A DNA stretch of 64,000 bases, taken from assembly GCA_964620555.1 (NCBI GenBank), contig CAZUGZ010000001.1, positions 13,667 through 77,666 on the forward strand, given 5' to 3'. The stretch comes from an uncultured Alteromonadaceae bacterium (GTDB taxonomy: Bacteria > Pseudomonadota > Gammaproteobacteria > Pseudomonadales > Halieaceae). A program made the translations under genes and the position numbers. The notes under the pieces are model-generated. The model was not told the DNA's origin. It searched no databases and worked only from the letters and a program-made list of their open reading frames with translations. How positions within the stretch are numbered: position 1 is the stretch's first letter; every line of letters begins with the position of its first letter. Positions 12,464 through 48,255 of this stretch are shown one piece after another.

Positions 12464-13417
12464 CTATGCTCCGCCTCTGCGTGGCCTCGAGGAGCAGTCC
12501 TTGGGCCAGCGCCGCTTCAGGCACATCCATTGCTCGGGAGCTTCGCGGATCCACTGCTCGAAATGGCGATTGACCAGGGTCGTCATGGCAATCGCCTGGG
12601 ACCGGATATCCGCCTCGGGATCGGGATTGTCGATGGGGTCGTGGACGCGAATGAAAAAGCGACCTGGTTCCAGGCGCCCGGCACGAACGGGAATCAGCGC
12701 CGCACCGGTTTTCAGCGCCAGCCGGGCAGCGCTGATATTGGTGTACGCATCGACTCCGAAGAAGGGAATTGGCTGACCGCTGTCGAGCCGGGTATCCGTG
12801 GCCAGGCCGATGCTGTTACCCGCCGTCAACTCCCGATAAAGCGGCCTGACCCCCTCTTCCGAAGCGACCAGTTTGCTACCGAAACTGGTCCGCAGGCGTA
12901 GCAAATGTCGCTGCAGGAAGGCATTGGATTCGGCCGCGTACACGGTACTGACGGTCATTCCATACTGGCGGAAAATCAGGTTGGTCAGTTGCCAGGCGCC
13001 GACGTGAGCGGTGACGAACACGTTGGCTCTGCCCGGTTGCAGGCGGCTGCGGGCAGCCGGGGAGACTTCGAACTCGATGCGCTGTTTGCGCTCTCGCCAG
13101 ATCTGGGGCAGCTTGACCAGTTCCGCCGTGGCGACCCCGAGATAGCCGAAGGTCTGGCGACACAACTGCCGGATGTGGCGTTCACCGGCTTCGGGATAGA
13201 TGACCCGCAGATTGCGCTTTACTGCCTTGGCCTTGTTGCTGAACGGGCCCAGACAGCGGAACACTGCGGCGGCGAGGGAGGCGGCACGTTCCGGCGAAAG
13301 GCGCCCGAGCAGTCGAAACACCAGGCCCACGCAGCACGCTTCCAGTTTTTGCGTCATCCGTCCAAGTGCCGGGGCCGCCCTGGCCAGGCGCTTGGGAACC
13401 AGGTAGAACTCAGCCAC
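12464..13417 (-). CDS. LpxL/HtrB-family lipid acyltransferase (Lip_A_acyltrans), copy 1
   Basis: VFVTAHVGAWQL (H-x4-type acyltransferase motif region), GLATDTRLDSGQPIPFFG, PEQWMCLKRRW (the family's C-terminal W..RRW). GTG at 13417 overlaps the hydroxylase stop by 8 nt. An alternative ATG is at 13357. Confidence 0.75.
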   Translation of the reverse strand: MAEFYLVPKRLARAAPALGRMTQKLEACCVGLVFRLLGRLSPERAASLAAAVFRCLGPFSNKAKAVKRNLRVIYPEAGERHIRQLCRQTFGYLGVATAELVKLPQIWRERKQRIEFEVSPAARSRLQPGRANVFVTAHVGAWQLTNLIFRQYGMTVSTVYAAESNAFLQRHLLRLRTSFGSKLVASEEGVRPLYRELTAGNSIGLATDTRLDSGQPIPFFGVDAYTNISAARLALKTGAALIPVRAGRLEPGRFFIRVHDPIDNPDPEADIRSQAIAMTTLVNRHFEQWIREAPEQWMCLKRRWPKDCSSRPRRGGA

Positions 13418-14024
13418 TGGGGCTGCCGGTACTGCGAAACACCAGGTCCCAGAGTGGGGAACTGACGCCGTAGCGTGCCTTCTCTCCCGAGTAGTGATGC
13501 TTGAGGTGATGTCGCTTGAGATAGGCGGCAATCGGGTTGCGCATGGGAAAGTGGTGAACGCCGTAGTGTATGTAGTCGTAGCACAGGTAGCCGGCGATAA
13601 AGAAGGCAAACAGGGGTTGCAGCCAGGGTTGTGGCACCGCCAGCGAAAACAGGTAATAGAGGGCGAGCATGATGGGTATGGAACCGCTGGGAGGCATCAC
13701 CAGGCGAGTCTTGTCCCTGGGGTCCTGGTGATGATTGCCGTGGAACAGGAACACCAGCCACTTGCCGGGTTTGCTCCTGGCGGGAAAGTGAAAGGCGAAA
13801 CGGTGAAGCAGGTATTCGGTGAGGGTCCACAATAGTAGCCCGGCGATGGCGCACCCGAGGATTCCGGTTGCCGGTAGCAGCTCCACGGCGATGCTGCGCC
13901 CCAACAGAAAGCCGGCGATGGGTGACCACAGGAGCAGGGGCACCAGCGGGTGTACGTGGGTCAGGCTTTCGAGAAAATCGTTCTCGAACAGGCGGATGGA
14001 TCGATGTTCCGGGTTAGCCTGCAT
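13410..14024 (-). CDS. Fatty-acid hydroxylase superfamily (sterol desaturase-like) membrane di-iron enzyme
   Basis: 204 aa, hydrophobic. Histidine boxes LLHRFAFH, FHGNHHQDP, HYGVHH, HHLKHHY. Confidence 0.75.
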   Translation of the reverse strand: MQANPEHRSIRLFENDFLESLTHVHPLVPLLLWSPIAGFLLGRSIAVELLPATGILGCAIAGLLLWTLTEYLLHRFAFHFPARSKPGKWLVFLFHGNHHQDPRDKTRLVMPPSGSIPIMLALYYLFSLAVPQPWLQPLFAFFIAGYLCYDYIHYGVHHFPMRNPIAAYLKRHHLKHHYSGEKARYGVSSPLWDLVFRSTGSPSG

Positions 14025-14991
14025 GGCCGTCTGCCTCCACAGGTGATCGCTGGTCGCCCGCTCCGGGCGCGGTTCCCGGCCAGATTCGCTGTGGGCAGAA
14101 CCAGGCCTCCGGGGCCTCGCTGATCCAACTCTGAAAGTGGTGGTGGAGTTGCGCCGTCATGTCCCGGGCCCGTTGATTTTCGTCGCCATGCCCCTCCGTG
14201 GCAAGTACCGGAGCATGAAAAGTGACTCGAAACTCGGCATCCCGGAGCCTCTGCACCTGGGTCGGGATCAGGTCCAGACAGAATTTCAGGGCCAATTTTG
14301 CCGGCAACAGGCTACTGGGCTTGGGTATGCCGAAAAAGGGAATTTCGGTGCCGCCATCCAGTCGCCGGTCGATGACCACGGCCACGGAGCGGCCGCTTTG
14401 CAGGTTTCGTACCATTCCCCGGGCGGCACGCTGGCGGGGCACCAGTTCGCAGTTCATTTGCCGCCTGGACTCAAACAGCATCCGCTCCAGCAGTGGATTG
14501 GACGGGGGAGTATACAGCGCCATACTGGGGATGCTAAGCCGATTCAGGGCGCAAATGATCAACTCCCAATTGCTTTGGTGGGCGCCTACAAAAATTGCCG
14601 GCCGTTGCCGGTCGCCCTCGCCAATCCACCGGATATGCAGCCGCTCCCGGTCCCTGGAGTCGACGATGGTACGGAAGTGGGGATATTCCGCCAACACCCG
14701 CCCCCCATTGCCCCAGCCCGCAGTAACCAACTGCTCGAGTGCGGCCGCGGACCGCTGGGGAAACGCCCGTGACAGATTTTCACGATACACGGCAGTCTTG
14801 TGCTTCAGCCGACGCCCCACCACTCGGCCCAGGTGCCAGCCGAGTCGCGAGGCGCGGTCCACCGGCAGCAGGGCGAACAGCTTGACCAGCAGCCATACCA
14901 GGACAAAGTCGAGACGCCACAGAAATTTCTGCAGACCCGGGTAACGTGTTGCGGTCTTGCCAATTGCATGGCCGATGAGGAACTGTGCCAC
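14014..14991 (-). CDS. LpxL/HtrB-family lipid acyltransferase, copy 2
   Basis: GTG start, 325 aa. N-terminal membrane anchor (FVLVWLLVKLFALLP), IFVGAHQSNWEL, VVIDRRLDGGTEIPFFG, PEAWFCPQRIW. 11-nt overlap with the hydroxylase start. Confidence 0.75.
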   Translation of the reverse strand: MAQFLIGHAIGKTATRYPGLQKFLWRLDFVLVWLLVKLFALLPVDRASRLGWHLGRVVGRRLKHKTAVYRENLSRAFPQRSAAALEQLVTAGWGNGGRVLAEYPHFRTIVDSRDRERLHIRWIGEGDRQRPAIFVGAHQSNWELIICALNRLSIPSMALYTPPSNPLLERMLFESRRQMNCELVPRQRAARGMVRNLQSGRSVAVVIDRRLDGGTEIPFFGIPKPSSLLPAKLALKFCLDLIPTQVQRLRDAEFRVTFHAPVLATEGHGDENQRARDMTAQLHHHFQSWISEAPEAWFCPQRIWPGTAPGAGDQRSPVEADGHAG

Positions 14992-15004: not shown

Positions 15005-15946
15005 TCAGCCCCGTGCTGTCCGCAGATTCTTCAAACCCCGGGCCAGGGAGATCGAGGGCCGCCATTCAATCTTCGCCTGGATTTCCCGGTTATCCACCAC
15101 CCAATCCGGGTATCGCAGTTCGCGCAACTTGGCGGGAGTCAGCATCGGTGCGTAATGCAGTTGGCGCGCCAGTTTCAGGTTGGTCCAGGCCAGCAGGTCC
15201 AGCAGTTGTGCCGGCAGACGCAGCAGGCGCACCCGGCGACTCTCGACCTGTGCTGCCACCGTGGCCAACTCGTGCCAGTCGTATCCTTCCGCCCGGTCGT
15301 CCGCCAGGCTCAGTATCTGCCGGGGCAGGGCCTCGGCATCCACCAGCAGCACCAGGGCCCGCACCAGGTCGGCAACGTGCAGCAGTGAGAAGCGATTTGC
15401 GGGAGCGCAGGGTATGGGCAGCAAGCCGTGTGCCAGCCAGCGGAAAATCGGTGTCAGTTCCCGGTCCCCGGGGCCGTAGACCGGCGGCGGGCGCAGTATG
15501 GTCCATTCCAGTTGGTCGGCCTGCTCCTGTACGAGCCGTTCCGCCCGCTGTTTGCTGGACGCATACCAGGATAGTTGCGGCTGCCGGGCCGCCAGTGTAG
15601 ACAGCATGATCAACCGGGGGGATGGTTGTCGCTGCTGCAGGGCGGTCAGCAAACGGGAGGTTCCCTGGAGATTGGTGCGGTCGAATTCCGCCTGGCTGGC
15701 ACCGCGTACCGCCCCGGCACAATGGACAACTGTCCCGGCATTTTCCAGCAGTTGCGACAGCGCCTGCGGGGCAGCCAGGTCACCGACCACCAGGCTGGCG
15801 CCGGCCGCCTCCAGTTCCCGGGCGGCATCGGGGTCGCGCACCAGCACCCGCAGTGAGCTGCCACTGCCGAGCAGGGAGTTGCAAAGATGAAAGCCGATGA
15901 ATCCGGTTGCGCCGGTAACCGCAACCAATTGAGCAGACGAATTCAA
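15005..15946 (-). CDS. NAD(P)-dependent epimerase/dehydratase-fold reductase, CerR-like candidate
   Basis: 313 aa (TTG start, exact start uncertain). Rossmann motif VAVTGATGFIGFHL and YASSK (catalytic Y-x3-K). Starts 3 nt after the acyl-AMP ligase stop. Confidence 0.75.
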   Translation of the reverse strand: MNSSAQLVAVTGATGFIGFHLCNSLLGSGSSLRVLVRDPDAARELEAAGASLVVGDLAAPQALSQLLENAGTVVHCAGAVRGASQAEFDRTNLQGTSRLLTALQQRQPSPRLIMLSTLAARQPQLSWYASSKQRAERLVQEQADQLEWTILRPPPVYGPGDRELTPIFRWLAHGLLPIPCAPANRFSLLHVADLVRALVLLVDAEALPRQILSLADDRAEGYDWHELATVAAQVESRRVRLLRLPAQLLDLLAWTNLKLARQLHYAPMLTPAKLRELRYPDWVVDNREIQAKIEWRPSISLARGLKNLRTARG

Positions 15947-15949
15947 GGC

Positions 15950-17878
15950 TCAGGCCGAGGCGACCTTGAGTTCCCTCTCTCCGCTGCGGACAGTGCCGTC
16001 CTCGCCGCCCTGGGCTGCGATGAAATCCAGGCGCGCCTTGGCCCGCGATAATTTGCCGGATGAAGTCTTCGGCAGGGAACGCACCGGCACCAGTTCCACG
16101 TGGCAGTCCAGGCTCAACTCCATGCGGATCAGGGCGCGCAGACGACGTATCAGGTTGTTGCGCAGTTTGGCATCGGATTCCCGGCACTGCACCAGCAATA
16201 CGCATTGTTCATCACCGTTGGTATTGGGTGTGGAGAATGCCAGGGCGTCGTTGCGGCGCACTTCGGGCTGGGTCTCGGCGATGTGCTCGAGGTCCTGGGG
16301 CCAGATGTTGCGCCCGTGGATGATGATCAGGTCTTTCTTGCGACCGGTGATGGTCAGAATGCCGTCCACCAGGTAGCCGTAATCGCCGGTATTGAGCCAG
16401 CCGTCCTCGCTCAGCACCTCGCTGGTTTCTTCCGGCAGGTTGTAATAGCCGGACATGACACTGGGGCCGCGCAAATGCACCACACCACTGTGCCAATCGG
16501 CCAGCGGTTGGCCCTGGTCATCGCGAATTTCAATTTCGAAACTGGGCAGGGGTTTGCCACAGTTGACGAAATGGCGGCCCCGTCCACCCGGCAGGTGTTC
16601 TTCCAGCAGCAGCGCCCGATGGTGGTCGGCCAGGTGGTCGCTGTCGATATAGTGAGTGGAATAGGTTTTGTCCAGGGGTGAAAAGCTGACGCCGAGCGTA
16701 CATTCCGCCATACCGTAACAGGCGGTGAAGGCGCGTGGGTCGAAACCCACTGGTTGCAGCGTGTCGGCAAAGTGCTTCAGGGTCTGGGGATGGATCATTT
16801 CGGCACCGATGCCGGCGACCCGCCAGTGGCGCAGGTCGTATTGTTCGATATCCTGGGGACGCAGACGGCGGGTTACCAGGTCGTAACCGAAAGAGGGCGC
16901 AAAGGAGATGGTTGCCTTGCTGAGCGTCATCAGCCTCAACCACTGGCGCGGGCGCAAGGCAAACTCGCGGGTATCCAGGAAATCGATGGAGAGCTGGGTT
17001 GCCGTGGGCGTCAGCACAAAACCCACCAATCCCATATCGTGGTAGAAGGGCAGCCAGGACATCATCCGGTCTCCCTCCTCCAGGGCCAGACCGTGCTGCG
17101 CTATTCCCTGAAGGTTGGCCAGTACCGTGCGGTGTTTGATGACGGTACCGCGGGGGAAACGGGTGCTGCCGGAGGTGTACTGAATGTAGGATATGTCTTC
17201 CGCACTCGGTGTGGGCAGGGTCAATTCTGTTGTGGGCAATTGCTGGAAAGCCGCGGGCTGATCCACCATGAGCAGGTTCAAATCCGCGCAGGCCTCCCGC
17301 AAAATCGTCAGGTACCCCTCGGAGGCAACCGCCACCGAAGCTTCACTGGCCTTCAACAAACGCCGCAATTGTTGCGTGTAGACATTCTGGCTGCCCATAT
17401 TGATGGTGGCGGGCAGCGAGACCGGGATCAGGCAGGCATACTGGCAGGCATAGAAAAATTTCAGGAAATCCGGCGTCGTCTCAGCCACCAGCCCGACCCG
17501 GTCGCCCGGACTCAGGCCGAGGCCCAGCAGCTTGCGGGCCAGTTCTCGCGCTGCTTCACGCAGTTCGAAATAGGTCAAAACAGTCTGCAGCTTGCCGCGG
17601 CCACTGTAGAAATTGGCGCCGGTTTCGCCTTGCGCAGCGTAATCCAGCGCCTCGGCCAGGGTGACAAAGTCAGCCGGCCGGCGGGCGAGATCATGGGAAG
17701 TCGGTGTGGCGAGTACGGTAGTGGGTTCTGAATGCAAAACTGGTTCCCCGGAAATTTGATAGGTAGATGCTGCCAACCCGGCCCAGGCTGCGTCGCGTGG
17801 TCGTTTCCCTCTGCGGACGCTGCTGGACAATCGGATAGTACCAAAATCGGAAGTGGTCCCTGTAGGTAATAATACCAA
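15950..17878 (-). CDS. Fatty acyl-AMP ligase / acyl-ACP synthetase-type adenylating enzyme
   Basis: Motifs YIQYTSGSTRFPRGTVIKH (A3), FYHDMGL, ACYGMAE, NTGDYGY, ITGRKKDLIIIHGRNIWPQDLE, SSGKLSR (A10). N-terminus uncertain: ATG 17878 gives a low-complexity leader, and TTG 17737 is an alternative. Confidence 0.85.
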   Translation of the reverse strand: MVLLPTGTTSDFGTIRLSSSVRRGKRPRDAAWAGLAASTYQISGEPVLHSEPTTVLATPTSHDLARRPADFVTLAEALDYAAQGETGANFYSGRGKLQTVLTYFELREAARELARKLLGLGLSPGDRVGLVAETTPDFLKFFYACQYACLIPVSLPATINMGSQNVYTQQLRRLLKASEASVAVASEGYLTILREACADLNLLMVDQPAAFQQLPTTELTLPTPSAEDISYIQYTSGSTRFPRGTVIKHRTVLANLQGIAQHGLALEEGDRMMSWLPFYHDMGLVGFVLTPTATQLSIDFLDTREFALRPRQWLRLMTLSKATISFAPSFGYDLVTRRLRPQDIEQYDLRHWRVAGIGAEMIHPQTLKHFADTLQPVGFDPRAFTACYGMAECTLGVSFSPLDKTYSTHYIDSDHLADHHRALLLEEHLPGGRGRHFVNCGKPLPSFEIEIRDDQGQPLADWHSGVVHLRGPSVMSGYYNLPEETSEVLSEDGWLNTGDYGYLVDGILTITGRKKDLIIIHGRNIWPQDLEHIAETQPEVRRNDALAFSTPNTNGDEQCVLLVQCRESDAKLRNNLIRRLRALIRMELSLDCHVELVPVRSLPKTSSGKLSRAKARLDFIAAQGGEDGTVRSGERELKVASA

Positions 17879-18025: not shown

Positions 18026-19171
18026 GTGTCCAAGGTAGCAAGCCATTCCCTGACCCTGTTGCCGGTCGACGATGCGGCTACCCTGCGGCAATTCATTCGC
18101 GTTCCCCATCGCGTGTACCGGGATGACCCCAATTGGATTGCGCCACTGAATTTTCAGGAAAAACATCGTTTCAGCCCGGCTCGTCCCTTTTTTGAGCACG
18201 CCCGCTGGCGGGGCTGGGTGGTGCTTGGCGACGGCCGGCCACTGGGCCGGATCAGTGCCCAGGTGGATGATCTTCATCAACAGCGCTATCGGGACCATAC
18301 CGGCAGCTTCGGCATGCTGGAGGCGATAGACGACCCCGAGGTGTTTCAACTGCTGTTCGAGGCCGCGCAGAACTGGCTGCGCGAACAGGGCATGCGGCGG
18401 GTGCGTGGCCCCTTCAACCTGACCATCAACGAGGAGGTGGGTATGCTGGTGGAAGGCCTGCAGTACCCGCCCTGTTTTTTGATGGGACACGGTCGTACCT
18501 ATTACGACCTCAGGGTCAGGGACCAGGGCTTCGCCAAGTGCAAGGATGTGCTGGCCTTCCGCATCAATCCGGATTTTGAGGCACCACCGGTAATGACGAA
18601 GCTGGCGCAACGTGCGTCGCGAAAAGTCAGCGTACGGCCGCTGAACCGGAGCCGGCTGGCCCAGGACACCGAAATCATGCGCACCATTTTCAATGACGCC
18701 TGGCAGCACAACTGGGGTTTTGTGCCCTTTACCGACAACGAGTTCAGTGACCTGGTAAAGTCCCTGATCCTGGTGTTGCCCGAAGACTATGTGCAAATCG
18801 CCACCTATGAAGGTCGGCCGGCTGCCTTCATCGTCATGCTGCCCAACCTCAACGAGGCCATACGGGGCCTGCGCGGGCGCGTTTTTCCCCTGGGATGGCT
18901 CACCATACTGTGGCGCTTCAAGGTTCGTGGCCTGCGCTCCGGGCGGGTACCCCTGATGGGTGTGTGCCAGGAATTCCAGAATTCTCCAGCGGGTCCGGTC
19001 ATGGCCTTTCTGGTGATCGATGCCGTGCGCAAGCGGGCCGCCGCACGGGGTATGGTGGAAACCGAAATGGGCTGGGTGCTGGAAGACAACCAGGCCATGT
19101 GCAATATCATCGAGACCATTGGGGGCGAGGCCTACAAGCGCTATCGAATCTACGAGAAGGAGCTGGACTGA
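18026..19171 (+). CDS. GNAT-fold N-acyltransferase, candidate bacterial ceramide synthase (bCerS-like)
   Basis: GTG start, 381 aa. LRQFIRVPHRVYRDDPNWIAPL, GRISAQVDD, FGMLEA, VRGPFNLTINEEVGMLVEG, WQHNWGFVPFTDNEF, MGWVLEDNQAM...YKRYRIYEKEL. Family assignment is by pattern memory. The functional call rests on the genomic context. Confidence 0.55.
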   Translation: MSKVASHSLTLLPVDDAATLRQFIRVPHRVYRDDPNWIAPLNFQEKHRFSPARPFFEHARWRGWVVLGDGRPLGRISAQVDDLHQQRYRDHTGSFGMLEAIDDPEVFQLLFEAAQNWLREQGMRRVRGPFNLTINEEVGMLVEGLQYPPCFLMGHGRTYYDLRVRDQGFAKCKDVLAFRINPDFEAPPVMTKLAQRASRKVSVRPLNRSRLAQDTEIMRTIFNDAWQHNWGFVPFTDNEFSDLVKSLILVLPEDYVQIATYEGRPAAFIVMLPNLNEAIRGLRGRVFPLGWLTILWRFKVRGLRSGRVPLMGVCQEFQNSPAGPVMAFLVIDAVRKRAAARGMVETEMGWVLEDNQAMCNIIETIGGEAYKRYRIYEKELD

Positions 19172-19175: not shown

Positions 19176-19997
19176 GTGCAACTGGACCCGAAATCAAACC
19201 GCCTGTCGGCCATAGTGCTGGCCGGGGACCGAACCAAAGCCGATTCGCTGATCGCCCATTCCGGGGTCCCTTGCAAAGCACTGATCGATGTCGATGGCAC
19301 TCCCATGGTGCATCGGGTGATCAATGCCCTGAGGAGTTCCCAACTGGTCAATGGCATCCTGTTGTCCGGCCCGGAACGCGAGGAACTTGCCGGCGATGCC
19401 ACGCTGAGCGACTGGGTTGAACGGGGCGAAGTAGCCTGGCATTCGCCGCTGCATACTCCCAGTACCAGTGCCTTTGCCGCGCTGCAATCCCTGCCCAGGG
19501 AGGCCCCGGTATTGCTTACCACTGCGGACCACCCCCTGCTCAGCAAGGAAATCATCGATGCCTACGGCCGCCAGAGTCTGACGGATGACGTGGATGTAAC
19601 TGTGGCTCTGGCCCCCTACGCGCTGGTGCGGGAGGCCTATCCCGGCATGAAAAAGACAGTCCTCCGCTTCAGCGACGGCGAGTTCTGCGGCTGCAACCTG
19701 TTCGCCTTCCTCACTCCGGAGGGTCGCCGGGTCGCCCATTTCTGGCAAAAGATTGAACAGCAGCGCAAGAAGCCGCTGGCGCTGATTGCCCTGTTGGGCT
19801 GGTGGCCCCTGCTGCGCTATCACTTCGGCCTGCTGCCGCTGGAGGAGGCCCTGGCGAAGTTGAGCAAGCGTCTGGGTTTGCGGCTGCGCGCGATCATCCT
19901 GCCCTACGCCAATGCGGCGGTGGACGTGGATTCGATTTCCGACCTGATGATGGTGCGTGGTTCCTTCGAAAAACTGACTGGCGAGCAACGTCTGTAG
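19176..19997 (+). CDS. MobA-like nucleotidyltransferase-fold protein (NTP_transf_3-like)
   Basis: GTG start 4 nt after the preceding stop, about 273 aa. AIVLAGDRTKADSL...PCKALIDVDGTPMVHRV resembles the LAGG-x-SxR-hydrophobic...K.L..hydrophobic.G.phi-hydrophobic N-terminal NTP-binding pattern. TTADHPLL. Confidence 0.6.
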   Translation: MQLDPKSNRLSAIVLAGDRTKADSLIAHSGVPCKALIDVDGTPMVHRVINALRSSQLVNGILLSGPEREELAGDATLSDWVERGEVAWHSPLHTPSTSAFAALQSLPREAPVLLTTADHPLLSKEIIDAYGRQSLTDDVDVTVALAPYALVREAYPGMKKTVLRFSDGEFCGCNLFAFLTPEGRRVAHFWQKIEQQRKKPLALIALLGWWPLLRYHFGLLPLEEALAKLSKRLGLRLRAIILPYANAAVDVDSISDLMMVRGSFEKLTGEQRL

Positions 19998-22468: not shown

Positions 22469-22711
22469 TCAGTCCTGCAGTTCCCCCAGCTTGGTGGCGA
22501 GTTGGCCGATAGTGCTGATGGCGGGAAGAATATTCAAGGGGATGGATAGATCGAACTCATCTTCTATCTGCTCGATGAATTCCATTACCTCCAGTGAACT
22601 CATGCCGAGGTCGCCGACCAGTTCGGTGGTCTCCGACAAGCCCGGTTCCGGGGTCTGCGCGGACCCGAGCTGGCGGTAGATGAAGTCCAGGTATTGCTGG
22701 TAGTTCGCCAT
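22469..22711 (-). CDS. Acyl carrier protein (dedicated)
   Basis: 80 aa from MANYQQYLDF. Phosphopantetheine site region GDLGMSSLEVMEFIEQIEDEF. Confidence 0.8.
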   Translation of the reverse strand: MANYQQYLDFIYRQLGSAQTPEPGLSETTELVGDLGMSSLEVMEFIEQIEDEFDLSIPLNILPAISTIGQLATKLGELQD

Positions 22712-41073: not shown

Positions 41074-41110
41074 TCTGTAAAGAATGTCTCCGGTACAGAC
41101 CTTGATTTAT

Positions 41111-41201
<91 letters not shown>

Positions 41202-41238
41202 ACACGGGAAGTGAATTCTACTGAAATTTCGCCACCTG

Positions 41239-42186
41239 TCAGGCGGCTTTTTCGATGGGGTCGGAGAGGGGGTGAAGCGGCGCCGGCGGCAACTCGCGGG
41301 TCTGTGCCAACACTTCGAACAGGTCGTGGCGCACATGATTCTGCGCCATCTCCTGGCGCAGGAACTGCTCGCTTATGCGGTCCGATTCCAGGCACTCCTT
41401 GAGCAGGGCCAGGAAAAAATTCTCCTGGTTGCGGTCGGGGTGGGGCTTGTAGTTGCCGAGAAAGGCGTATTCGCCGAACAGGTGACGACGGGCGCGCAGC
41501 AGCCAGGCAGCCGGGGGGAACAGCCGAAAGCGTTCGGCCGGACGCCAGTCGGTGGGCAGTCCGGTCTTCCAGGGCTGAGTCTTGCGGCGCGTGGTGTGCA
41601 GCAATCGGGTGGCGGTTGTGAATCGGTCAAAATCATTCCACTCCGCCTCAAAAAAACCGATGCTGTCGCGGTCCTCCTGCTTCAGACAGATCCATGGCTG
41701 ATAATCCTGCTCGAGGTCGAACATGGCGTTGAAGGTGGCTTCCGCATCCCAATGCCGCAGGCGGGCACAGTCCAGCAGCATGACACTGCTGGCAAAGCAG
41801 CGGTCGACCAGCCCCTTGGGACCCGAACGCATCCGGCAGAGGATGGCCTTGCCCTGCATGTCCCGGGACAGTAACTCCCAGACATCAGCGCTGGCGAAAA
41901 TGTCGGGATCGATGACCAGCGCCCGGCCCTGGTACCCCATCAACTCGGGTGGCATGAAGCGGGTGGGAGTAAAGGATTGCAGGTCGTCGTTGCGCCAGAC
42001 GCGTTTGACCCCGTCGCGCAGGTACAGTTGGCCCTCGCGGGCGGCGAACATGGGGTAGTCGCGGCTGTCGATGATCCTGATTTCAAAGCGGTCGTTATGG
42101 CTTGAATAACGCCGCAGGGCGTATTCGCCGACGATGGCCCCGGTCATCTGCTTGTGATTGGTCTGTATGAAAACGCAGTAGTCCAT
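41239..42186 (-). CDS. GT8-like nucleotide-diphospho-sugar glycosyltransferase, paralogue A
   Basis: Start MDYCVFIQTNHKQ at 42186, 315 aa. DxD-type motif ALVIDPDIFA, SSVMLLDCARLRHW, HTTRRKTQPWKTGLP. Clearly paralogous to 47353-48255. Confidence 0.6.
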   Translation of the reverse strand: MDYCVFIQTNHKQMTGAIVGEYALRRYSSHNDRFEIRIIDSRDYPMFAAREGQLYLRDGVKRVWRNDDLQSFTPTRFMPPELMGYQGRALVIDPDIFASADVWELLSRDMQGKAILCRMRSGPKGLVDRCFASSVMLLDCARLRHWDAEATFNAMFDLEQDYQPWICLKQEDRDSIGFFEAEWNDFDRFTTATRLLHTTRRKTQPWKTGLPTDWRPAERFRLFPPAAWLLRARRHLFGEYAFLGNYKPHPDRNQENFFLALLKECLESDRISEQFLRQEMAQNHVRHDLFEVLAQTRELPPAPLHPLSDPIEKAA

Positions 42187-42257
42187 GGTGGTTTCTGGTC
42201 GCTGCCGGAGCCTGCCGACTATAGAGGATAGCGTCGGCCATTTCCATTGCCGGCGCG

Positions 42258-43079
42258 TCAGCGCCGGGTGTTCTGATAGAGTATGCGGTTGCGCCTGATG
42301 TCGGCGTGGCGCGGAACAAAGCCGTGATCGTAGAGAAAGACATTGGTCTCGATAAAGGTATGTGCCTGCTGCTGGCCCCGTTCGTAGCCGCAATCCAGCG
42401 CCACCCAGTCGATGCGGGCCAGCGATTTGGTGGCGCCTTCGAGGACTTCCGGCTCCGCTCCCTCGGCTTCCACCTTGAAAATGACGGTTCCCTCCACGCC
42501 GGACAGGTCGAGTGCGCCGTCCAGGGTTACCGCCGGCACCTCGGTGCGCGAGACGGAACCGGGCATGTCGATTATTGAGCTGTCGGCCGACTCCGGTTTG
42601 GAGTAGAACGAGAGCGTCGTCTCTTCGTTCCACAGGGCCTCGCGTCGCGTGCCCGGCTGGCCACCGAAATTGTTCAGGTCGCAGCAGCGCGCCTCCAGCG
42701 GCTCTGGTTCGAAGGCAATATAGTCGAGTTCATGGGCTCGCGCCCACAGGCCGAGTTCCCCAATATTGGCGCCGGAGTCGACGAACAGGCCGCCATTGCT
42801 CAGGTCGATCACTTCCAGGTGGTACTCGTGGGCGAGGTCGCGTACCCGCCGCATCACCCCGCGCTTGAAGCGGTAGCTGCGCCGCAGCCGGCAGAAATGG
42901 ATGCGCGTTTCGCCGTCATCGGCACGAAATACCGGTTCCCCGGGGAGCGGAGAGATCCGGTGCCGGTTGCCGAGCGCGGCGTAAACAGTATTTGCCAGCA
43001 GGCAGTACGGCTTGCGTGGTATCCGGTTGCGGGTGCTCCGGGCAAAGTTGAGGAGCGCATCAGATTGCAGTTTTTTCAC
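42258..43079 (-). CDS. FkbM-family methyltransferase
   Basis: 273 aa. SAM-binding FVDSGANIGELGLWA, IAFEPEP, IFKVEAEGAEPEVLEG (the FkbM pattern K.D.EG.E..vL.G). Confidence 0.75.
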   Translation of the reverse strand: MKKLQSDALLNFARSTRNRIPRKPYCLLANTVYAALGNRHRISPLPGEPVFRADDGETRIHFCRLRRSYRFKRGVMRRVRDLAHEYHLEVIDLSNGGLFVDSGANIGELGLWARAHELDYIAFEPEPLEARCCDLNNFGGQPGTRREALWNEETTLSFYSKPESADSSIIDMPGSVSRTEVPAVTLDGALDLSGVEGTVIFKVEAEGAEPEVLEGATKSLARIDWVALDCGYERGQQQAHTFIETNVFLYDHGFVPRHADIRRNRILYQNTRR

Positions 43080-43283: not shown

Positions 43284-44576
43284 TTGAACGGTTCCCGTTT
43301 CGCGACCATCAATTCACTATCCTGGCTGGTCATGCTCATGCTGGCCACGGTTTACGTCGTTCCCATGCCCTTCGATGCCCTGTTCTTCGGGGTGCTGCTG
43401 TACGCGCTGTGCAAACTGCCCGCCGGTGAGCGCAACCACTGGCAGATAACCGGCGACCCCCTGTTCTGGCTGGGCACCGCACTGCTGGCTTACCTGAGTC
43501 TGAGCACGCTGTGGTCGGTGGAGGTCAGTGTGAAAGGTGTCGGGCAGGTGTGGCTGCGGGCGGCAATGGCCGCCACTTTCGTTCTTGCAGTGGTGATAGT
43601 GATCGGTCGGCGCGCAGACTTTGGTGTCGCGCTGAGTCGGGCGGTGGTGGCGGGGGCAGTGGCCGGTGCCGCAATCGCCCTGTTCTGTTACCTGGTCGAG
43701 CCTCCCGGGGATGGCCGCCTGCAGGGTTTGCTCCGCTTCGACAACGCCGGCCGCGCCGGGCGCATATTTTGTGCCGCGCTGCCCTTTGCCTTGACCCTGC
43801 TGTTTGCCGATCATCGCCACTGGCGGGTGTTGGGCGCTTTCGCCGTGCTCATCCTCTGCCTGGCGACCTTGTTGACGGATACCAGGGCGGCGTGGCTGGC
43901 CGCCGCGACTTGCCTGGCGGTTTACGGTATCGCCGTGCTGCGGCCACGGCTGCACCGCCTGCTGGCGGGCCTGGCGGGCGCGGCGGCGCTGGCCCTGGGT
44001 ATTTTCTACCTGGCGCTGCACAACCTCGACCTGTACGCCCTGATTTTACCGCGCGGAGGGAGTCTGCGGCTGGATATCTGGTCTGCTGCCACAGCAGACC
44101 TGATCGCCAGCAAGCCGTGGTACGGCTGGGGCCATCTCACCGATTACTGGACCACCGTTGGTGACCGGGAGATTCGAGGTACCCACAACATGTACCTGAC
44201 GGTGCTGTGGCAGGGTGGCCTGATCGGGCTGCTGCTGTTCGTCGGGACCCTGTTGGGTGTCGGGCTGCGCTTGACGAGATACCTGGATGACGTGAATGCG
44301 CGAATCGGCCTGAGCCTGCTGGCGGCAGGGTGCGTGGCCTTTGTATTCGGCGGCGACAGGATCATCGAAAAGATCGAATTTGTGCTGTTTGTGCTTTGGC
44401 TGCCACTGGGCATCGCCCTGTCGCTGCGATTGAAAAGCACCGCAGGAATGGCCCCGATGATGCAACGCGGGCCCCGCGTCCAGTCACCTACCGGAATACC
44501 CCCCGTCGATACAGCCGCCAGAAAAACCCCCAGCAGTAGAGAAGTGGTCGCTCCCGCACGCGTGGTGGAATGCTGA
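43284..44576 (+). CDS. O-antigen ligase/polymerase-like (Wzy_C) integral membrane protein
   Basis: About 12 TM segments. TDTRAAWLAAATCLAVY and a loop with GTHNMYLTVLWQGGLIGLLLF typical of the Wzy_C domain. Start is TTG 43284 or ATG 43332. The non-conserved tail overlaps the convergent gene by 89 nt. Confidence 0.7.
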   Translation: MNGSRFATINSLSWLVMLMLATVYVVPMPFDALFFGVLLYALCKLPAGERNHWQITGDPLFWLGTALLAYLSLSTLWSVEVSVKGVGQVWLRAAMAATFVLAVVIVIGRRADFGVALSRAVVAGAVAGAAIALFCYLVEPPGDGRLQGLLRFDNAGRAGRIFCAALPFALTLLFADHRHWRVLGAFAVLILCLATLLTDTRAAWLAAATCLAVYGIAVLRPRLHRLLAGLAGAAALALGIFYLALHNLDLYALILPRGGSLRLDIWSAATADLIASKPWYGWGHLTDYWTTVGDREIRGTHNMYLTVLWQGGLIGLLLFVGTLLGVGLRLTRYLDDVNARIGLSLLAAGCVAFVFGGDRIIEKIEFVLFVLWLPLGIALSLRLKSTAGMAPMMQRGPRVQSPTGIPPVDTAARKTPSSREVVAPARVVEC

Positions 44577-45423
44577 TCTGCTGACCGGAGTGGCGTTCCA
44601 GTTTCCAGGCGATGTAGTCGAGCCCGCCGTCAAAAGTGAACAATGCCTTGAGCAGGCGCAGCACCGAGCGCGCCTTGCCGAGGACGACTCGCAACGGCCA
44701 TGCCAGCCGGGCGCGGGCACGTTGCAGAGCGGTGCAGTGGCTGCGGTAGTGGCTTTGGCCGGCGTCGCTCCACAGTTCCAGTGCCAGTCCCTGCGCCTGC
44801 GCCAGGCGGGTTACCTGCTCGAAATGCCCGCTGCCACTGGCACTCAGTTGCCCGGCACGGCTGTCGCGTTCGGCGCGCAGTTCGGTGCGGTAGCTCAACC
44901 ACAGGCTGTGCTGCCAGAGTTGTTGCACTGTGCCGCTGGCGGGCAGCGTGGGCAGTCCGGCCCGTAACAGGGTAGTGACCGCACGCAGCAGGCATTCCCT
45001 CACCTGGCGGCCGCTGTCCTGGTCGCGCTGCCAGGCAATGGCAACCGGCTGCGCAAAACGCCCCCAAAAATAGGATTCCAGGGTGGTGCCGCCGGTAGCG
45101 CGGGCCAATTGCGCGGAGGACAGCAGCGCGTACTTGCAGCGCACCACCCGCTGCCGGTGCGTCGTCTCGGCGTAGAACACATTGGGTGGCAACAGCCAGT
45201 TGGCGGTGGCCGAAAGCCCCGCCCCGTAGGCCGAACGATAGTCGTCGCAGATCAGGTACAGGTCCAGCAAACCGTCGTGAATGTCGCCACTGCGCAGACA
45301 CGAGCCATACACCAGGACACAGTTGATGGCGCCGCGGTACCGCTCCAGCAGTGGCGCCAGTAGTGCGGCCAGGGCCGGGTCGGTGTCCGCGCTGGGTCCG
45401 GCGATGGTGGGAAAGCCGCTCAT
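44488..45423 (-). CDS. Pol-beta-type nucleotidyltransferase, Tam41/Mmp37-like (candidate lipid-phosphate cytidylyltransferase)
   Basis: 311 aa. VLVYGSCLRSGDIHDGLLDLYLICDDY (a G-S...D-x-D nucleotidyltransferase motif) followed by PPNVFYAETTHRQRVVRCKYALLSSAQL. This parallels the Tam41 pattern (...vYfn......g..iKYGvvs...L). ATGA overlap with the kinase stop. Confidence 0.5.
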   Translation of the reverse strand: MSGFPTIAGPSADTDPALAALLAPLLERYRGAINCVLVYGSCLRSGDIHDGLLDLYLICDDYRSAYGAGLSATANWLLPPNVFYAETTHRQRVVRCKYALLSSAQLARATGGTTLESYFWGRFAQPVAIAWQRDQDSGRQVRECLLRAVTTLLRAGLPTLPASGTVQQLWQHSLWLSYRTELRAERDSRAGQLSASGSGHFEQVTRLAQAQGLALELWSDAGQSHYRSHCTALQRARARLAWPLRVVLGKARSVLRLLKALFTFDGGLDYIAWKLERHSGQQISIPPRVRERPLLYCWGFFWRLYRRGVFR

Positions 45424-46370
45424 AACCTGATGAAAGTGACCGGTTGGCTGGCGCTGATGGTGATCGTACCGTCAGCGGCTCGGCTGCGCAGTATCTCTCC
45501 ATCCAGGTTGAACTCGGAGTCCAGCCGCAAGGTGATGTGGTCGGAGTTGTAGCTGAAGTAGCCGTATTCGGGCCGGGCGAAGCGATTGGGCCTGCCCCGT
45601 AGAATGGATTGCAGGCTGTACAGCAATCGCCGGCAGTGCTGCTCGATCACGGTCGTTCTCAGGGCCCCTGGCTCCCGACCCCAGAACGGATTGCTGCCCA
45701 GGAACAGGCGTTGCAGGCTGCTGATGAGGAGAACCAGGGCCTGGTGGTGGCCCGATAGCTGCTGTAACTGAAGTTCCACGTCTACCGGACGGTGAAATTG
45801 CGCCTCCCTGCGCAGCAGGCCCCAAATGGTGCGCAGCACCCCGAGGGCGACACTGAAATCGTCGCGCAGACCTCGCGAATGCAGTTCCCGATGTGCGTAT
45901 TCGGTACCCTGGATAACCGCCCCGGCGCCCAGGAACATGCCGTAGTGGGGTGGGCTGTCCGGGTCGATACAGACTCGCATCATCACCCGTTGAATGCGCT
46001 CGGATGGCACCGGATCACCGTTGCTCCAGGCGCAGAACTTTTTCAGGGCGGTTGCCGGAGTGCCGCGCACACCGACATCGCCGGCGCTCATGTTGGCGGT
46101 GCCCGCGGGCAGCAGAAGCACCGGCGGCAACTCGTTGAAGACCCGCTGTTCCAGGGCGTGGCCCAGCGTGGCAGCGAGCGTGCCGTCGCCCCCGTTGATG
46201 GCCAACGCCTGCAGTGGCTGTCGCCGCAGGCGGTCGAGAGCGGCTGCTATCTGCTGCGCATCGTCGGTAACGCAGTGGACAATATTGGGCTGGTCATCCA
46301 GCCGGCGCGTCCAGCGCTCGAAGCGGTCCCGGTTGTGGCCACTGTTCGGATTGCTGATCAGGCCGATCAA
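45420..46370 (-). CDS. DAGK_cat/LCB5-type lipid kinase
   Basis: 316 aa. LISNPNSG, ALAINGGDGTLAATL (GGDGT catalytic motif), LPAGTANM. ATGA overlap with the upstream gene. Confidence 0.8.
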   Translation of the reverse strand: MIGLISNPNSGHNRDRFERWTRRLDDQPNIVHCVTDDAQQIAAALDRLRRQPLQALAINGGDGTLAATLGHALEQRVFNELPPVLLLPAGTANMSAGDVGVRGTPATALKKFCAWSNGDPVPSERIQRVMMRVCIDPDSPPHYGMFLGAGAVIQGTEYAHRELHSRGLRDDFSVALGVLRTIWGLLRREAQFHRPVDVELQLQQLSGHHQALVLLISSLQRLFLGSNPFWGREPGALRTTVIEQHCRRLLYSLQSILRGRPNRFARPEYGYFSYNSDHITLRLDSEFNLDGEILRSRAADGTITISASQPVTFIRL

Positions 46371-47227
46371 AGGCTGGCACCGGACAGATCGATATGGGTC
46401 TCGCCGAAATGGGGTACCCGCCCGGAAATTCGCAGCGGCAGGCGAGTTTCCCGGTCCACCAGGAAATACACCTGGTCGCGCAAGCCCATCAACTCAAAAT
46501 CGTTCTGCTCGGGCTGCCGTACCGGCACTACCTGCAGTTCGATGCGGTCCGCGGAGACGGTCCCTTCCACCAGTTGCCCTCCTTCTCCCTGCAATCGGTA
46601 GCGAACGGCAACTGGCTGTTGGCCCTGGTTGCGCAACGTTGCCCGGTAAAAATTGTGGTCGGTGTGCAAATAGACTGTCAGGCTGTTGTCTACCGCGGTC
46701 AATTCGCCGGCAGTTGCCAATAGCAGCAGAGCGTACGGTGTCAGCAGGGGAGCGTCCATTTCGGGCAGGGCCAGTGACTCGCTGCTGGTGTCACTCCACT
46801 GCTGGTGGGGCAAGCGGTGTTCGCCCTGGGCCGGTTCCCTGCGCTGCCGCAGAATGTTCTCGGCCGCGTAGTCGAAGGACTTGAAACGCCGGTTCAGGCG
46901 GCCTTCGCTATAGCGCCGTTTGGCAAGTATGTTGCCGCGTGGAGAGGCCAGCAGCAGGGTAACCTGTTCCCGATTGTGTCGCCCCAGGCTGGCGTCCACC
47001 TGCAACTGCCAGTGGCAGCTTCCCCGCGCGTTGCGAACCGGCTGCAGTGCCAATTCGGCGGTGACGCCTCCCAGCGGAGAGGCCTGGTGATAATGCAGCG
47101 TTTGCCAGGGTGGAGCGGCAGTTGCCGGCGCGGCCATCGGCAGTAGCCAACAGCTGACGACAACGGCTGCGCAAAGGCTTGCGATGTTCCGTTCCGGCAG
47201 ATGGCGCTGCCACTTCATCAGCTTCAT
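46367..47227 (-). CDS. Exported protein of unknown function (possibly DUF3108-like)
   Basis: 286 aa. Signal peptide LCAAVVVSCWLLPMAAPATAA, then a predicted beta-rich body. First gene of the three-gene overlapping operon. Confidence 0.5.
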   Translation of the reverse strand: MKLMKWQRHLPERNIASLCAAVVVSCWLLPMAAPATAAPPWQTLHYHQASPLGGVTAELALQPVRNARGSCHWQLQVDASLGRHNREQVTLLLASPRGNILAKRRYSEGRLNRRFKSFDYAAENILRQRREPAQGEHRLPHQQWSDTSSESLALPEMDAPLLTPYALLLLATAGELTAVDNSLTVYLHTDHNFYRATLRNQGQQPVAVRYRLQGEGGQLVEGTVSADRIELQVVPVRQPEQNDFELMGLRDQVYFLVDRETRLPLRISGRVPHFGETHIDLSGASL

Positions 47228-47352
47228 GTCGGATACGCAATGGCACGGAACGGGCCGTCCAATCTATCACAAGCTTGAGAGCGGGGCGATCATCTTGTAG
47301 CCTGCACCCCTGTTGCAGTGCCCGCCCGCACTGCCAGTGAGGAGGCCGATTT

Positions 47353-48255
47353 GTGACCAACTGCGTCTTCATCCACACCAACGAGCGTCAGTGGCTGGGC
47401 GCACTGGTTGCCGAGTATTCGCTGCGCCGCAACAGTCGCACTGCGGACGAGTTTGAAGTCCGGTTGCTGCATACCCGTGACTTCGACTATCTCAGTGCGC
47501 GCGAAGGCCAGGACTACCTGCGTGCCGGCAGTTCACGCACCTGGCGCATGGACGATCTGCAATCCTTTACTCCCTTGCGTTTTCTGCCTCCCGCGCTGAT
47601 GCAGTGGCAGGGCCGGGCAGTGGTGATGGACCCCGACATTTTTGCGGTGGGCGATATCTGTGAACTGCTGGGCCGCGATATGGAGGGCGCCGCGGTGATG
47701 GGCAGGCACCGCTACCGGCAGGCTGCCAAGCAACACCTCGTGGCTACCAGCGTCATGCTGCTGGACTGTGCCCGGCTGCGGCATTGGGATGGGCCAGCCC
47801 AGTTCGAGGAACTGTTCCGATTCGAGCGCGATTACAAGGAGTGGATGGTACTGGCCCATGAGGACCCGGCCAATGTCGGCTTTCTGGAGCCCTGCTGGAA
47901 CGACTTCGACCACTTCGATGACGACACCCGGCTGCTGCACAACACCAAGCGTCGCACCCAGCCCTGGAAGACCGGTCTGCCGGTGGACTACACGCCCGCC
48001 GACAAATTCAAGCGCCTGCCGCTGCTGCGGCGGCTAAACCGCGCCCGCGCCCGCTGGCTGGGGGAATACGCGCTGCTGGGGCGCTACCGCCAGCATCCCG
48101 ACCAGCGCCAACAGGACTACTTTTTTGGCCTGCTCAAGGAATGCCTCGACTGCGGCCAACTGACGGAAGGCCTGCTCAGGGAAGAAATTGCCCGTCGCCA
48201 CCTGCGCCCCGACGCACTGCAGGTGTTGGCGCGCACTCCCGACCTGCGGCACTGA
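47353..48255 (+). CDS. GT8-like nucleotide-diphospho-sugar glycosyltransferase, paralogue B
   Basis: GTG start, 300 aa. MTNCVFIHTNERQ, AVVMDPDIFA, TSVMLLDCARLRHW, HNTKRRTQPWKTGLP. Collinear with paralogue A. Confidence 0.6.
   Translation: MTNCVFIHTNERQWLGALVAEYSLRRNSRTADEFEVRLLHTRDFDYLSAREGQDYLRAGSSRTWRMDDLQSFTPLRFLPPALMQWQGRAVVMDPDIFAVGDICELLGRDMEGAAVMGRHRYRQAAKQHLVATSVMLLDCARLRHWDGPAQFEELFRFERDYKEWMVLAHEDPANVGFLEPCWNDFDHFDDDTRLLHNTKRRTQPWKTGLPVDYTPADKFKRLPLLRRLNRARARWLGEYALLGRYRQHPDQRQQDYFFGLLKECLDCGQLTEGLLREEIARRHLRPDALQVLARTPDLRH

Follow-up and report, generated by a model that had tools for sequence, protein, structure and literature searches.

A gene block between zapE and rplM

We analysed 64,000 nucleotides of contig CAZUGZ010000001.1 from an uncultured bacterium of the Halieaceae (this whole stretch is referred to as the window; GC content ~62%), in which ~36 kb lie between zapE and rplM. 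This block is a composite of a ~25 kb conserved core and a ~11 kb insert, and the core, judged by homology, is an enlarged form of the sphingolipid locus that has been described in the proteobacteria Caulobacter, A. vinelandii, P. luteola and E. coli. A model that had read the window from its letters alone (the original prediction) placed the end of zapE at 12363 and the start of rplM at 48365, with about 30 genes and a tRNA-Ser between them in alternating operons with short overlaps. Profile matches and comparison with relatives confirm both boundaries. We counted 30 protein genes and a tRNA-Ser(cga) in the interval, arranged in alternating divergent and convergent units with overlaps of -1, -4, -4, -7, -8 and -11 nt and several larger ones. 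The further claim that nearly all of these genes are lipid-related was too strong: murA is a peptidoglycan gene, and eight genes at 30121-41201 form a species-level insert.

The boundary genes are:
11143..12363, + strand, zapE, left boundary gene (Pfam AFG1_ATPase; NCBIfam ZapE equivalog, 435 bits)
48365..48793, + strand, rplM, right boundary gene (open reading frame of 142 aa; 80-84% identity to the Ribosomal_L13 genes of relatives)

The alignment of zapE with its relatives begins at 11257, and its true start likely lies near that position. An Rfam search of the window found the tRNA alone. Promoter-like sites occurred at chance level and terminator-like sites were modestly above shuffled sequences (21 versus 14.0, standard deviation 4.2), and neither was of help in mapping operons.

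The core encodes a predicted ceramide pathway

On the zapE side of the block are genes resembling those for ceramide synthesis:
15005..15928, - strand, CerR-like NAD(P)-dependent reductase (Pfam Epimerase)
15950..17737, - strand, AasR-like fatty acyl-AMP ligase (FAAL) / acyl-ACP synthetase, 595 aa (NCBIfam NF006624, 760 bits versus a cut-off of 600)
18026..19171, + strand, bCerS/YghO-like GNAT N-acyltransferase, 381 aa, candidate ceramide synthase
21261..22463, - strand, serine palmitoyltransferase Spt, 400 aa (NCBIfam SerpalmtaseBetaP equivalog, 575 bits versus 500)
22469..22711, - strand, AcpR-like acyl carrier protein (ACP), 80 aa (Pfam PP-binding; also gene-called in locus L001)

These proteins were compared with the spt-linked clusters of E. 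coli and of pPNP1, an IncP plasmid of Pseudomonas sp. JS425. Identity to both was 52-55% for Spt, 45-48% for the AasR-like protein (to the spt-linked FAALs) and 38-41% for the CerR-like protein (to the epimerases), the activity of which is predicted only. The bCerS/YghO-like protein itself has no Pfam match, many of its homologues carry PF00583 and are named N-acetyltransferase, and it is 47% identical to the E. coli YghO encoded beside the spt operon and ~40% identical to a pPNP1 gene split by IS5. The acpR-like gene lies 5 nt upstream of spt, and this directly upstream position is kept in all compared clusters. Homology therefore identifies a ceramide-type gene set, from which ceramide synthesis by the block is inferred. 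AasR would charge the dedicated carrier AcpR with a fatty acid, which Spt would condense with serine to give 3-ketosphinganine; the YghO/bCerS-like GNAT would add the N-acyl chain, and CerR would reduce the ketone.

Head-group, decoration and acylation genes

Candidate head-group and decoration genes are spread through the core:
19176..19997, + strand, MobA/CofC-like nucleotidyltransferase of the CC_1153 type, 273 aa (Pfam NTP_transf_3)
22872..23936, + strand, ELM1/KdoT-like GT-B glycosyltransferase a, 354 aa (Pfam Mito_fiss_Elm1, E 2e-62; SART motif)
27989..29059, + strand, ELM1/KdoT-like glycosyltransferase b (Pfam Mito_fiss_Elm1; SRRT at residue 187)
29064..30143, + strand, ELM1/KdoT-like glycosyltransferase c (Pfam Mito_fiss_Elm1; SART motif; 56-63% identity in relatives)
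41239..42189, - strand, unk315, DxD-motif protein and putative GT-A glycosyltransferase, paralogue of unk300
42258..43079, - strand, FkbM-family methyltransferase (Pfam Methyltransf_21, TIGR01444)
43284..44576, + strand, Wzy_C / O-antigen-ligase-family membrane protein (Pfam Wzy_C, E 3.8e-16; start codon uncertain)
44488..45423, - strand, Tam41-like protein of the CpgC/CC_1161 type, 311 aa (Pfam Tam41_Mmp37 in orthologues)
45420..46370, - strand, DAGK_cat lipid kinase, 316 aa, CpgB-type candidate ceramide kinase (Pfam DAGK_cat)
47353..48255, + strand, unk300, DxD-motif protein and putative glycosyltransferase, paralogue of unk315 (weak GT8 hint)

Roles of CpgB, CpgC, CpgA and CpgD in the formation of ceramide phosphoglycerate (CPG) have been described (PMC12275187). 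The kinase in the window is 34% identical to an acylglycerol-kinase-family gene of pPNP1 and overlaps the Tam41-like gene by 4 nt. The 311-aa product of the latter shares 37% identity with a hypothetical gene adjoining the kinase in pPNP1, and Tam41_Mmp37 matches two of its four orthologues (best E 3.8e-5). The nucleotidyltransferase is 44% identical to the one located between lptF and bCerS on pPNP1 and does not match the CpgD-like gene of that plasmid. By analogy, the CpgB-like kinase would make ceramide-1-phosphate, which the Tam41/CpgC-like protein and the CC_1153-like nucleotidyltransferase would activate or extend.

All three ELM1 proteins match PF06258 (E 1e-48 to 1e-62). A single bacterial ELM1-like member has been characterised: KdoT transfers Kdo from CMP-Kdo and depends on the second arginine of its SRRT motif (PMC12856342). 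That arginine is kept in the SART motifs of elm1a and elm1c. The two DxD proteins are 54% identical to each other with the DPD motif conserved, and relatives encode them at 78% (unk315) and 75-79% (unk300) identity. A 780-aa pPNP1 protein, 'ELM1/GtrOC1', joins both families: its C-terminus matches the three ELM1 paralogues of the window (34-44%) and its N-terminus matches unk300 and unk315 (32-35%). This fusion ties the ELM1 and DxD proteins to sphingolipid clusters rather than to lipopolysaccharide (LPS). An AlphaFold2 (AF2) model of unk300, for which the alignment contained the window paralogue only, was unusable (pLDDT 38.5), and profile searches of the block's three unknown families against PDB sequences gave nothing significant.

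At the position of the FkbM methyltransferase, loci L165 and L166 of relatives carry a GT2 gene. The Wzy_C protein has eight transmembrane-like segments and belongs to a family that also includes polymerases; its gene is found in L165, L166 and L168, and not in the Litorirhabdus block (L167). The three ELM1/KdoT-like GT-B transferases, together with the DxD pair, a sulfotransferase and either a methyltransferase or a GT2 enzyme, would be expected to give a glycosylated, sulfated head group.

Next to zapE, three further genes are translationally coupled to aasR-cerR:
12464..13417, - strand, LpxL-like acyltransferase 1, 317 aa (Pfam Lip_A_acyltrans, E 4e-38)
13410..14024, - strand, membrane fatty-acid hydroxylase family protein, 204 aa (Pfam FA_hydroxylase, E 3.5e-20)
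14014..14991, - strand, LpxL-like acyltransferase 2, 325 aa (Pfam Lip_A_acyltrans, E 1e-40)

The hydroxylase has His boxes and one transmembrane segment and is 66-76% identical in relatives. LpxL-like 2 has the canonical H-x4-E (HQSNWE) and scores under the NCBIfam cut-offs (135 versus 273); LpxL-like 1, which adjoins zapE in 16 relatives, is likewise under every NCBIfam LpxL/LpxM cut-off (best 150 versus 273). The hydroxylase probably hydroxylates the lipid, to which the LpxL-like pair would then probably add secondary (acyloxyacyl or sugar-linked) acyl chains; this hydroxylation and secondary acylation is the least supported step of the proposed pathway.

Candidate export genes

Three transport genes lie in one stretch of the core, and a fourth gene encodes a secreted or anchored protein:
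23901..25640, - strand, ABC half-transporter, 579 aa, candidate sphingolipid flippase (Pfam ABC_membrane and ABC_tran)
25692..26759, - strand, LptG2-type permease (TIGR04408, 250.6 bits versus 240)
26762..27829, - strand, LptF2-type permease (Pfam LptF_LptG; TIGR04407, 263.8 bits versus 230)
46367..47227, - strand, unk286, secreted/anchored all-beta protein (N-terminal hydrophobic segment)

The ABC half-transporter is not MsbA (236 bits against the MsbA equivalog, cut-off 602) and shares 47% identity with the ABC protein encoded after spt on pPNP1. Against their spt-linked counterparts in E. coli and pPNP1, LptF of the window scores 141-171 bits (LptF2) and LptG 129-137 bits (LptG2); with the canonical E. 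coli proteins the scores drop to 93 and 101, respectively. In Caulobacter, LptF2G2 is needed once anionic sphingolipid is produced and uses the housekeeping LptB (bioRxiv 10.64898/2026.04.12.717747). By analogy with that system, we infer an export route in which the non-MsbA ABC transporter would flip the lipid across the inner membrane and LptF2G2, powered by the housekeeping LptB encoded ~10 kb upstream, would extract it for transfer to the outer membrane.

We considered unk286 as a candidate LptC2 and rejected it: it has no LptC family match, and its AF2 model (pLDDT 78.5) weakly resembles the LolA/RseB/DUF1849 barrel rather than the LptC jellyroll. Foldseek matches to the model were weak (best 6ntr, E 1.3e-3, TM-score 0.40-0.45, then RseB and LolA-like structures), and the predicted fold is possibly that of a LolA/RseB/DUF1849-like lipid-binding barrel.

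The LPS operon of the window (1435-4229) has the order kdsD-kdsC-lptA-lptB and lacks an lptC gene between kdsC and lptA; relatives show the same two-gene spacing.

A MurA encoded in the spt operon

The last gene of the acpR-spt-murA operon encodes an enzyme of a different pathway:
20011..21261, - strand, MurA, 416 aa (NCBIfam TIGR01072 equivalog, 564 bits versus 392.7)

murA overlaps spt by 1 nt, and its position is kept in all block-bearing relatives. By comparison with E. coli MurA, the protein keeps the catalytic and UDP-GlcNAc-binding residues checked, K22, N23, R91, C115, R120, D305, D369, R371 and R397. MurAs of the block form a separate clade and reach 57-60% identity to canonical gammaproteobacterial MurAs, whereas the canonical ones share ~70% among themselves; we therefore take the gene to be a paralogue or xenologue and not the relocated native gene. 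Block-less relatives have the canonical murA flanked by ibaG and hisG, at a distance of ~6 kb upstream from zapE. This slot is filled in block-less Halieaceae other than Halioglobus sp. ANT-24 (L073) and in most other zapE loci with hisG upstream, and it is empty, with ibaG abutting hisG, in the window (8386-9274) and in all 16 block-bearing loci. Because the ancestral slot is empty, the block protein, a divergent MurA with its catalytic residues intact, most likely serves as the cell's MurA. The simplest reading of these sequence comparisons is that the native essential murA has been displaced by the copy in the spt operon. The original prediction missed that murA encodes a bona fide MurA-type enzyme and not a lipid enzyme, one that probably replaces the product of the missing canonical gene.

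A conserved core and a species-level insert

In three relatives (OZ242189.1, CBDEGK01 and Litorirhabdus) the block could be followed from end to end, and there it spans only ~23-27 kb. The left half of these blocks reads zapE, lpxL1-hydroxylase-lpxL2-cerR-aasR, bCerS-NTase (the nucleotidyltransferase), murA-spt-acp, ELM1a and ABC-lptG-lptF. The right half continues with ELM1b, Sulfotransfer_1 and ELM1c, followed by unk315, (GT2), Tam41-like, kinase, unk286 and (Wzy_C), and then by unk300, a 4'-phosphopantetheinyl transferase (PPTase) in some, and rplM (the genes in brackets being variable). Relative to this arrangement, the window has the FkbM methyltransferase in place of GT2, Wzy_C has moved, and PPTase and Sulfotransfer_1 are gone. 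The PPTase (ACPS) genes of relatives, located between unk300 and rplM (L165 6172-6924; L166 6344-7021), would presumably activate AcpR; no homologue was found in the 64 kb of the window, where the gap between unk300 and rplM is just 109 nt.

The window further has eight genes, including the tRNA, between ELM1c and unk315 (30121-41201):
30121-32190, - strand, TonB-dependent receptor
32330-33616, + strand, Sulfotransfer_3
33652-34680, + strand, short-chain dehydrogenase/reductase (SDR)
34793-36379, + strand, CrtO/CrtI-like FAD oxidoreductase
36373-38712, - strand, HAE3/MMPL-type resistance-nodulation-division (RND) protein
38926-40329, + strand, Rieske oxygenase
40414-41073, + strand, SodC
41111-41201, - strand, tRNA-Ser(cga)

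In L165-L167, elm1c is followed by the homologue of unk315 with no such insert; L168, the closest relative (at least 88-90% identical), has it. GC content falls to 0.56-0.60 at 33-39 kb, within part of the insert. We regard it as a later, species-level addition of uncertain function that cannot be assigned to the pathway. That its sulfotransferase may functionally stand in for the missing Sulfotransfer_1, and that its RND protein is of a lipid-exporting type, is conjecture. A metagenome scan with the Rieske oxygenase hit a generic family of wide distribution (identities of 63% or less, for the most part on short contigs) and was uninformative about synteny. The proposal that the whole block serves the synthesis and export of a non-canonical envelope lipid holds for the conserved core, with its sphingolipid genes, and cannot be extended to the 11-kb insert or murA.

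In L168 (13099-14728) the tRNA-Ser(cga) is flanked by an AAA_14/DUF4143 ATPase gene and a truncated FAD-protein gene, neither of which is present at 41111-41238 of the window; the tRNA-adjacent site is thus a small variable hotspot inside the block.

Distribution and origin of the block

A scan with ZapE, taking one genome per species, gave 80 zapE loci, onto which the proteins of the window were mapped. The best ZapE matches were metagenome-assembled genomes (MAGs) of Halieaceae (Cellvibrionales; 60-74% identity), followed by Marinobacter, Halomonadaceae and others. rplM lies within ~3.5 kb after zapE in 24 of the 80 loci; in Halioglobus-type Halieaceae, gammaproteobacterial MAGs and Halomonadaceae the gap is ~100-250 nt and the order rplM-rpsI-petA-petB follows. 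Sixteen Halieaceae loci, including that of Ca. Litorirhabdus singularis IMCC14734, carry the block after zapE with the gene order of the window, and share the left junction zapE, lpxL-hydroxylase-lpxL-cerR-aasR, bCerS-NTase, murA-spt-acp. In a neighbour-joining tree of hisD and zapE the block-bearing genomes form one clade, the sister group of which is block-less Halieaceae.

Since block-less relatives keep zapE and rplM adjacent and the block carriers are monophyletic, the parsimonious account is a single insertion into an ancestrally adjacent pair, in the ancestor of one Halieaceae sub-clade, with vertical inheritance since. No integrase or transposase was found among the block proteins, and repeat searches found no flanking direct repeats at the boundaries of the block or the insert, the only repeats being the paralogous ELM1 genes. 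In GC content at third codon positions (GC3) and in codon usage, the block genes agree with the flanking housekeeping genes. Together these observations argue that the acquisition is old.

Several claims of the original prediction are borne out by this survey. The split of an adjacent zapE/rplM pair was verified in related genomes, with 16/16 members of the window's clade carrying the block at this site, and the content is lineage-specific, being restricted to one Halieaceae sub-clade across the 80 loci and the tree. The view that it is not a recent mobile island agrees with the missing mobility genes and flanking repeats and with the flank-like composition. The synteny comparison that had been suggested for the zapE-rplM interval places the block at the same site in the closest relatives; since the block is not an ordinary waa region, the outcome that would have refuted the original prediction was not observed.

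Comparison with known sphingolipid loci

The Caulobacter locus CC_1152-CC_1168 contains aasR, cerR, acpR, spt, cerS, a DAGK-type ceramide kinase and a Tam41-like protein, together with MobA/CofC-like and CpgD nucleotidyltransferases, a CDP-alcohol phosphatidyltransferase and a second LptF/G/C set (PMC11324152). The locus, also designated CCNA_01210-01226, directs the synthesis of ceramide, CPG and CPG2 and includes the genes for LptF2G2C2; CC_1161 is its Tam41-like protein, the CC_1153 nucleotidyltransferase is described in S1 Text, no murA is present, and contiguous versions of the locus occur in gammaproteobacteria including A. vinelandii and P. luteola (PMC11324152). Like this locus, the Halieaceae block combines aasR, cerR, acpR, spt and a candidate bCerS-type acyltransferase with a DAGK-type kinase beside a Tam41-like gene, a MobA/CofC-like nucleotidyltransferase beside the bCerS candidate, and an LptF2/LptG2-type pair within the locus, with a proposed export logic in which LptB is shared. 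In contrast to Caulobacter, it has no CpgA, CpgD, phosphoesterase or HIT protein and no recognisable LptC2, and its flippase candidate is an ABC half-transporter where Caulobacter has a Wzx-like protein. It adds three ELM1-like glycosyltransferases, two DxD proteins, a sulfotransferase, two LpxL-like proteins, a fatty-acid hydroxylase, a WaaL-like protein and murA.

The E. coli cluster reads yghO, then FAAL-epimerase-ACP-spt, then lptG-lptF. Gene for gene, the block is 30-55% identical to the E. coli and pPNP1 clusters across bCerS, AasR, CerR, ACP, Spt, LptF2, LptG2, the nucleotidyltransferase, kinase, Tam41-like and ABC genes; for pPNP1, the values not given above are 48% for AasR, 38% for CerR, 55% for Spt and ~30% for LptF/G. 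Compared with both, the Halieaceae block is larger and chromosomal at the zapE-rplM site, its ELM1 and DxD domains occur as separate proteins in several copies, and it adds the LpxL-like genes, FA_hydroxylase, sulfotransferase, WaaL-like gene and murA. pPNP1 has an Asp beta-hydroxylase-type protein and no FA_hydroxylase, and has retained CpgA- and CpgD-like genes, which are absent from the window.

The block also resembles LPS genes in part. Its ELM1 proteins share PF06258 with KdoT of Acinetobacter baumannii (A1S_2903; the CMP-Kdo transferase of the lipooligosaccharide (LOS) core), with SRRT in elm1b and the second arginine in SART, whereas they lie in a sphingolipid locus rather than in a LOS core locus, are three in number and have no identified GnaT partner gene. 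With LPS waa and late-acylation regions it shares the Lip_A_acyltrans, ABC exporter and Wzy_C families and the expected export by the Lpt pathway; in contrast, the members of these families in the block score below their ortholog-level cut-offs and the genes are embedded in ceramide operons.

Independently of the window, spt was found in 4101 of 5426 complete E. coli genomes, in the yghO-to-yghS region and with a second lptF/lptG pair. In E. coli NC_017656.1 (L169) an internal stop makes the cerR-like epimerase gene a pseudogene. On pPNP1 (65.7-86.1 kb; L170/L171) the sphingolipid cluster is near-complete, with the bCerS-like gene split by IS5, and it adjoins a class 1 integron (sul1, intI1), IS5, IS6100 and Tn3 elements.

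Interpretation and alternatives

We propose, with a probability of roughly 0.7, that in this Halieaceae sub-clade the block builds and exports an anionic, sugar-decorated outer-membrane sphingolipid, that the locus was acquired once and has been inherited since, that its MurA is the MurA of the cell, and that the insert stands apart. The 'supercluster' of the original prediction is not a new kind of locus but an expanded form of a described one (PMC11324152; bioRxiv 10.64898/2026.04.12.717747). What is new is the host clade, the fixed location between zapE and rplM, the enlarged set of decoration and acylation genes, and the murA arrangement.

Several observations weigh against this proposal. 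The bCerS assignment is one of homology to the spt-linked YghO-type gene and not directly to Caulobacter CC_1154, and the Tam41 match of the window protein itself is weak (E 0.051). There is no PF01066 or CpgD-like match in the 30 proteins of the block and no tblastn match to the CpgA- or CpgD-like genes of pPNP1, so that a Caulobacter-type second phosphoglycerate (CPG2) is not expected. LptC2 appears to be absent (no LptC family match in the block), leaving the transport module incomplete. KdoT, the only characterised ELM1-like enzyme, acts on the lipid A core and not on a sphingolipid (PMC12856342). LpxL-like 1 has H-x4-Q and thus no acidic residue of the catalytic dyad (H-x4-E/D); since the OZ242189.1 orthologue keeps this change, the protein may be inactive or work differently. 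LptF and LptG of the window pass the NCBIfam LPS equivalog cut-offs, and some block genes (lptFG, ABC, lpxL-like, waaL-like, murA) could be the only copies in the genome and serve LPS. The block-less locus of Halioglobus sp. ANT-24 (L073) also has an empty murA slot, showing that slot loss and the block are not strictly coupled at the zapE-rplM site. Finally, a literature search found no link between Halieaceae and sphingolipids.

The shared families raise the possibility that the block is an ordinary lipid A late-acylation and LPS-core/export region with a small ceramide operon beside it and LPS as its main product. Two Lip_A_acyltrans proteins, a Wzy_C protein, an ABC transporter of MsbA-like architecture, the LptF and LptG scores and the activity of KdoT in extending the lipid A core would all fit, as would the location of kdsD-kdsC-lptA-lptB ~8-10 kb upstream. 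However, the LpxL-like proteins reach 135-150 bits versus cut-offs of at least 273 and the ABC transporter falls far below the MsbA cut-off, no block protein matched WaaA, WaaC, WaaF or the Kdo- or heptosyltransferase families, and the lpxL-like genes are coupled to aasR-cerR. With no ortholog-level LpxL, MsbA, WaaA, WaaC or WaaF, this is not an ordinary waa region. LptF and LptG of the window are closer to spt-linked LptF2/G2 than to the canonical proteins, and PGAP also calls the E. coli spt-linked paralogues LptF and LptG, so marginal equivalog scores imply no housekeeping role. ELM1, the unk300-like domain, the ABC transporter, the kinase and the Tam41-like gene moreover co-occur with spt on pPNP1, and we judge an LPS region to be improbable. 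A recently acquired, mobile genomic island of 36 kb would be favoured by the tRNA-Ser inside the block, the homologous clusters flanked by IS5 and Tn3 elements on an IncP plasmid, the betaproteobacterial model that scores best for Spt, and the GC dip at 33-39 kb. Against this, the block lacks mobility genes and boundary repeats, its codon usage and GC3 are those of the flanks, its position and order are constant across monophyletic genomes with only 60-74% ZapE identity, and the recent part is the inner 11 kb only, itself without mobility genes in the window; such an island is very hard to reconcile with these data.

For murA, the competing view is that the block protein is a dedicated enolpyruvyl transferase acting on a glycolipid head group or sugar, with a canonical murA elsewhere in the genome. 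Co-transcription with acpR-spt through a 1-nt overlap in every block-bearing genome seen, the separate clade with only 57-60% identity to canonical MurAs, and the empty slot of L073 without a block at the zapE-rplM site are in its favour. Nonetheless, the murA equivalog is passed well above its cut-off, the nine catalytic or binding residues are conserved (relative to E. coli MurA), the ibaG-murA-hisG slot is empty in 16/16 block-bearing loci, and the E. coli, pPNP1 and Caulobacter sphingolipid clusters are all without murA. We consider a dedicated transferase unlikely and favour replacement of the cellular MurA. A bolder version of our proposal, which we advance as a tentative and rather doubtful one, is that the product is a ceramide-anchored LPS analogue (hydroxylated, LpxL-acylated, ulosonic-acid/sugar-extended and sulfated, in some strains with a WaaL-ligated polymer, and exported by the ABC transporter and LptB2F2G2) and that murA in the spt operon is a xenologous replacement. 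If so, an abundant marine clade would couple the synthesis of its cell wall and of its outer-leaflet sphingolipid at the level of transcription.

Bacteria of the Halieaceae (OM60/NOR5 group) are abundant in coastal seas. From a conserved locus of ~25 kb, fixed in the chromosome, we predict a sub-clade-wide anionic, glycosylated and probably sulfated sphingolipid in the outer membrane alongside LPS. Such a lipid would affect recognition by phages and grazers, sensitivity to antimicrobial peptides and the use of marine lipid biomarkers. The locus also offers a natural experiment on the roles of ELM1-like transferases and of the fused or split DxD domain, on the flippase preceding LptF2G2, and on LpxL-family acylation of sphingolipids, while the murA arrangement would clearly exemplify the displacement of an essential gene into an operon for an accessory lipid. 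Because the clade has a cultured member, Ca. Litorirhabdus singularis IMCC14734, these questions can be tested directly.

Flanking genes

On the left side, zapG (10586-11161, - strand) is divergent from zapE. Downstream of rplM follow rpsI, petA, a petBC fusion, sspA and sspB; the 'petABC' of the original prediction is therefore correct as to the genes present and not as to their number, as petB and petC are fused. The fusion joins cytochrome b and cytochrome c1 in a single 673-aa gene (49898-51919), and relatives carry the same fusion (675 aa). Further upstream, between a 243-aa gene and ibaG, is a 2.3-kb islet of low GC content (0.53-0.55; 6038-8332) without counterpart in loci L005, L006 and L008. 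It contains a PIN-domain (VapC-like) toxin gene (6199-6591, - strand) and part of a gene for the specificity subunit of a Type I restriction-modification system (7833-8270, - strand).

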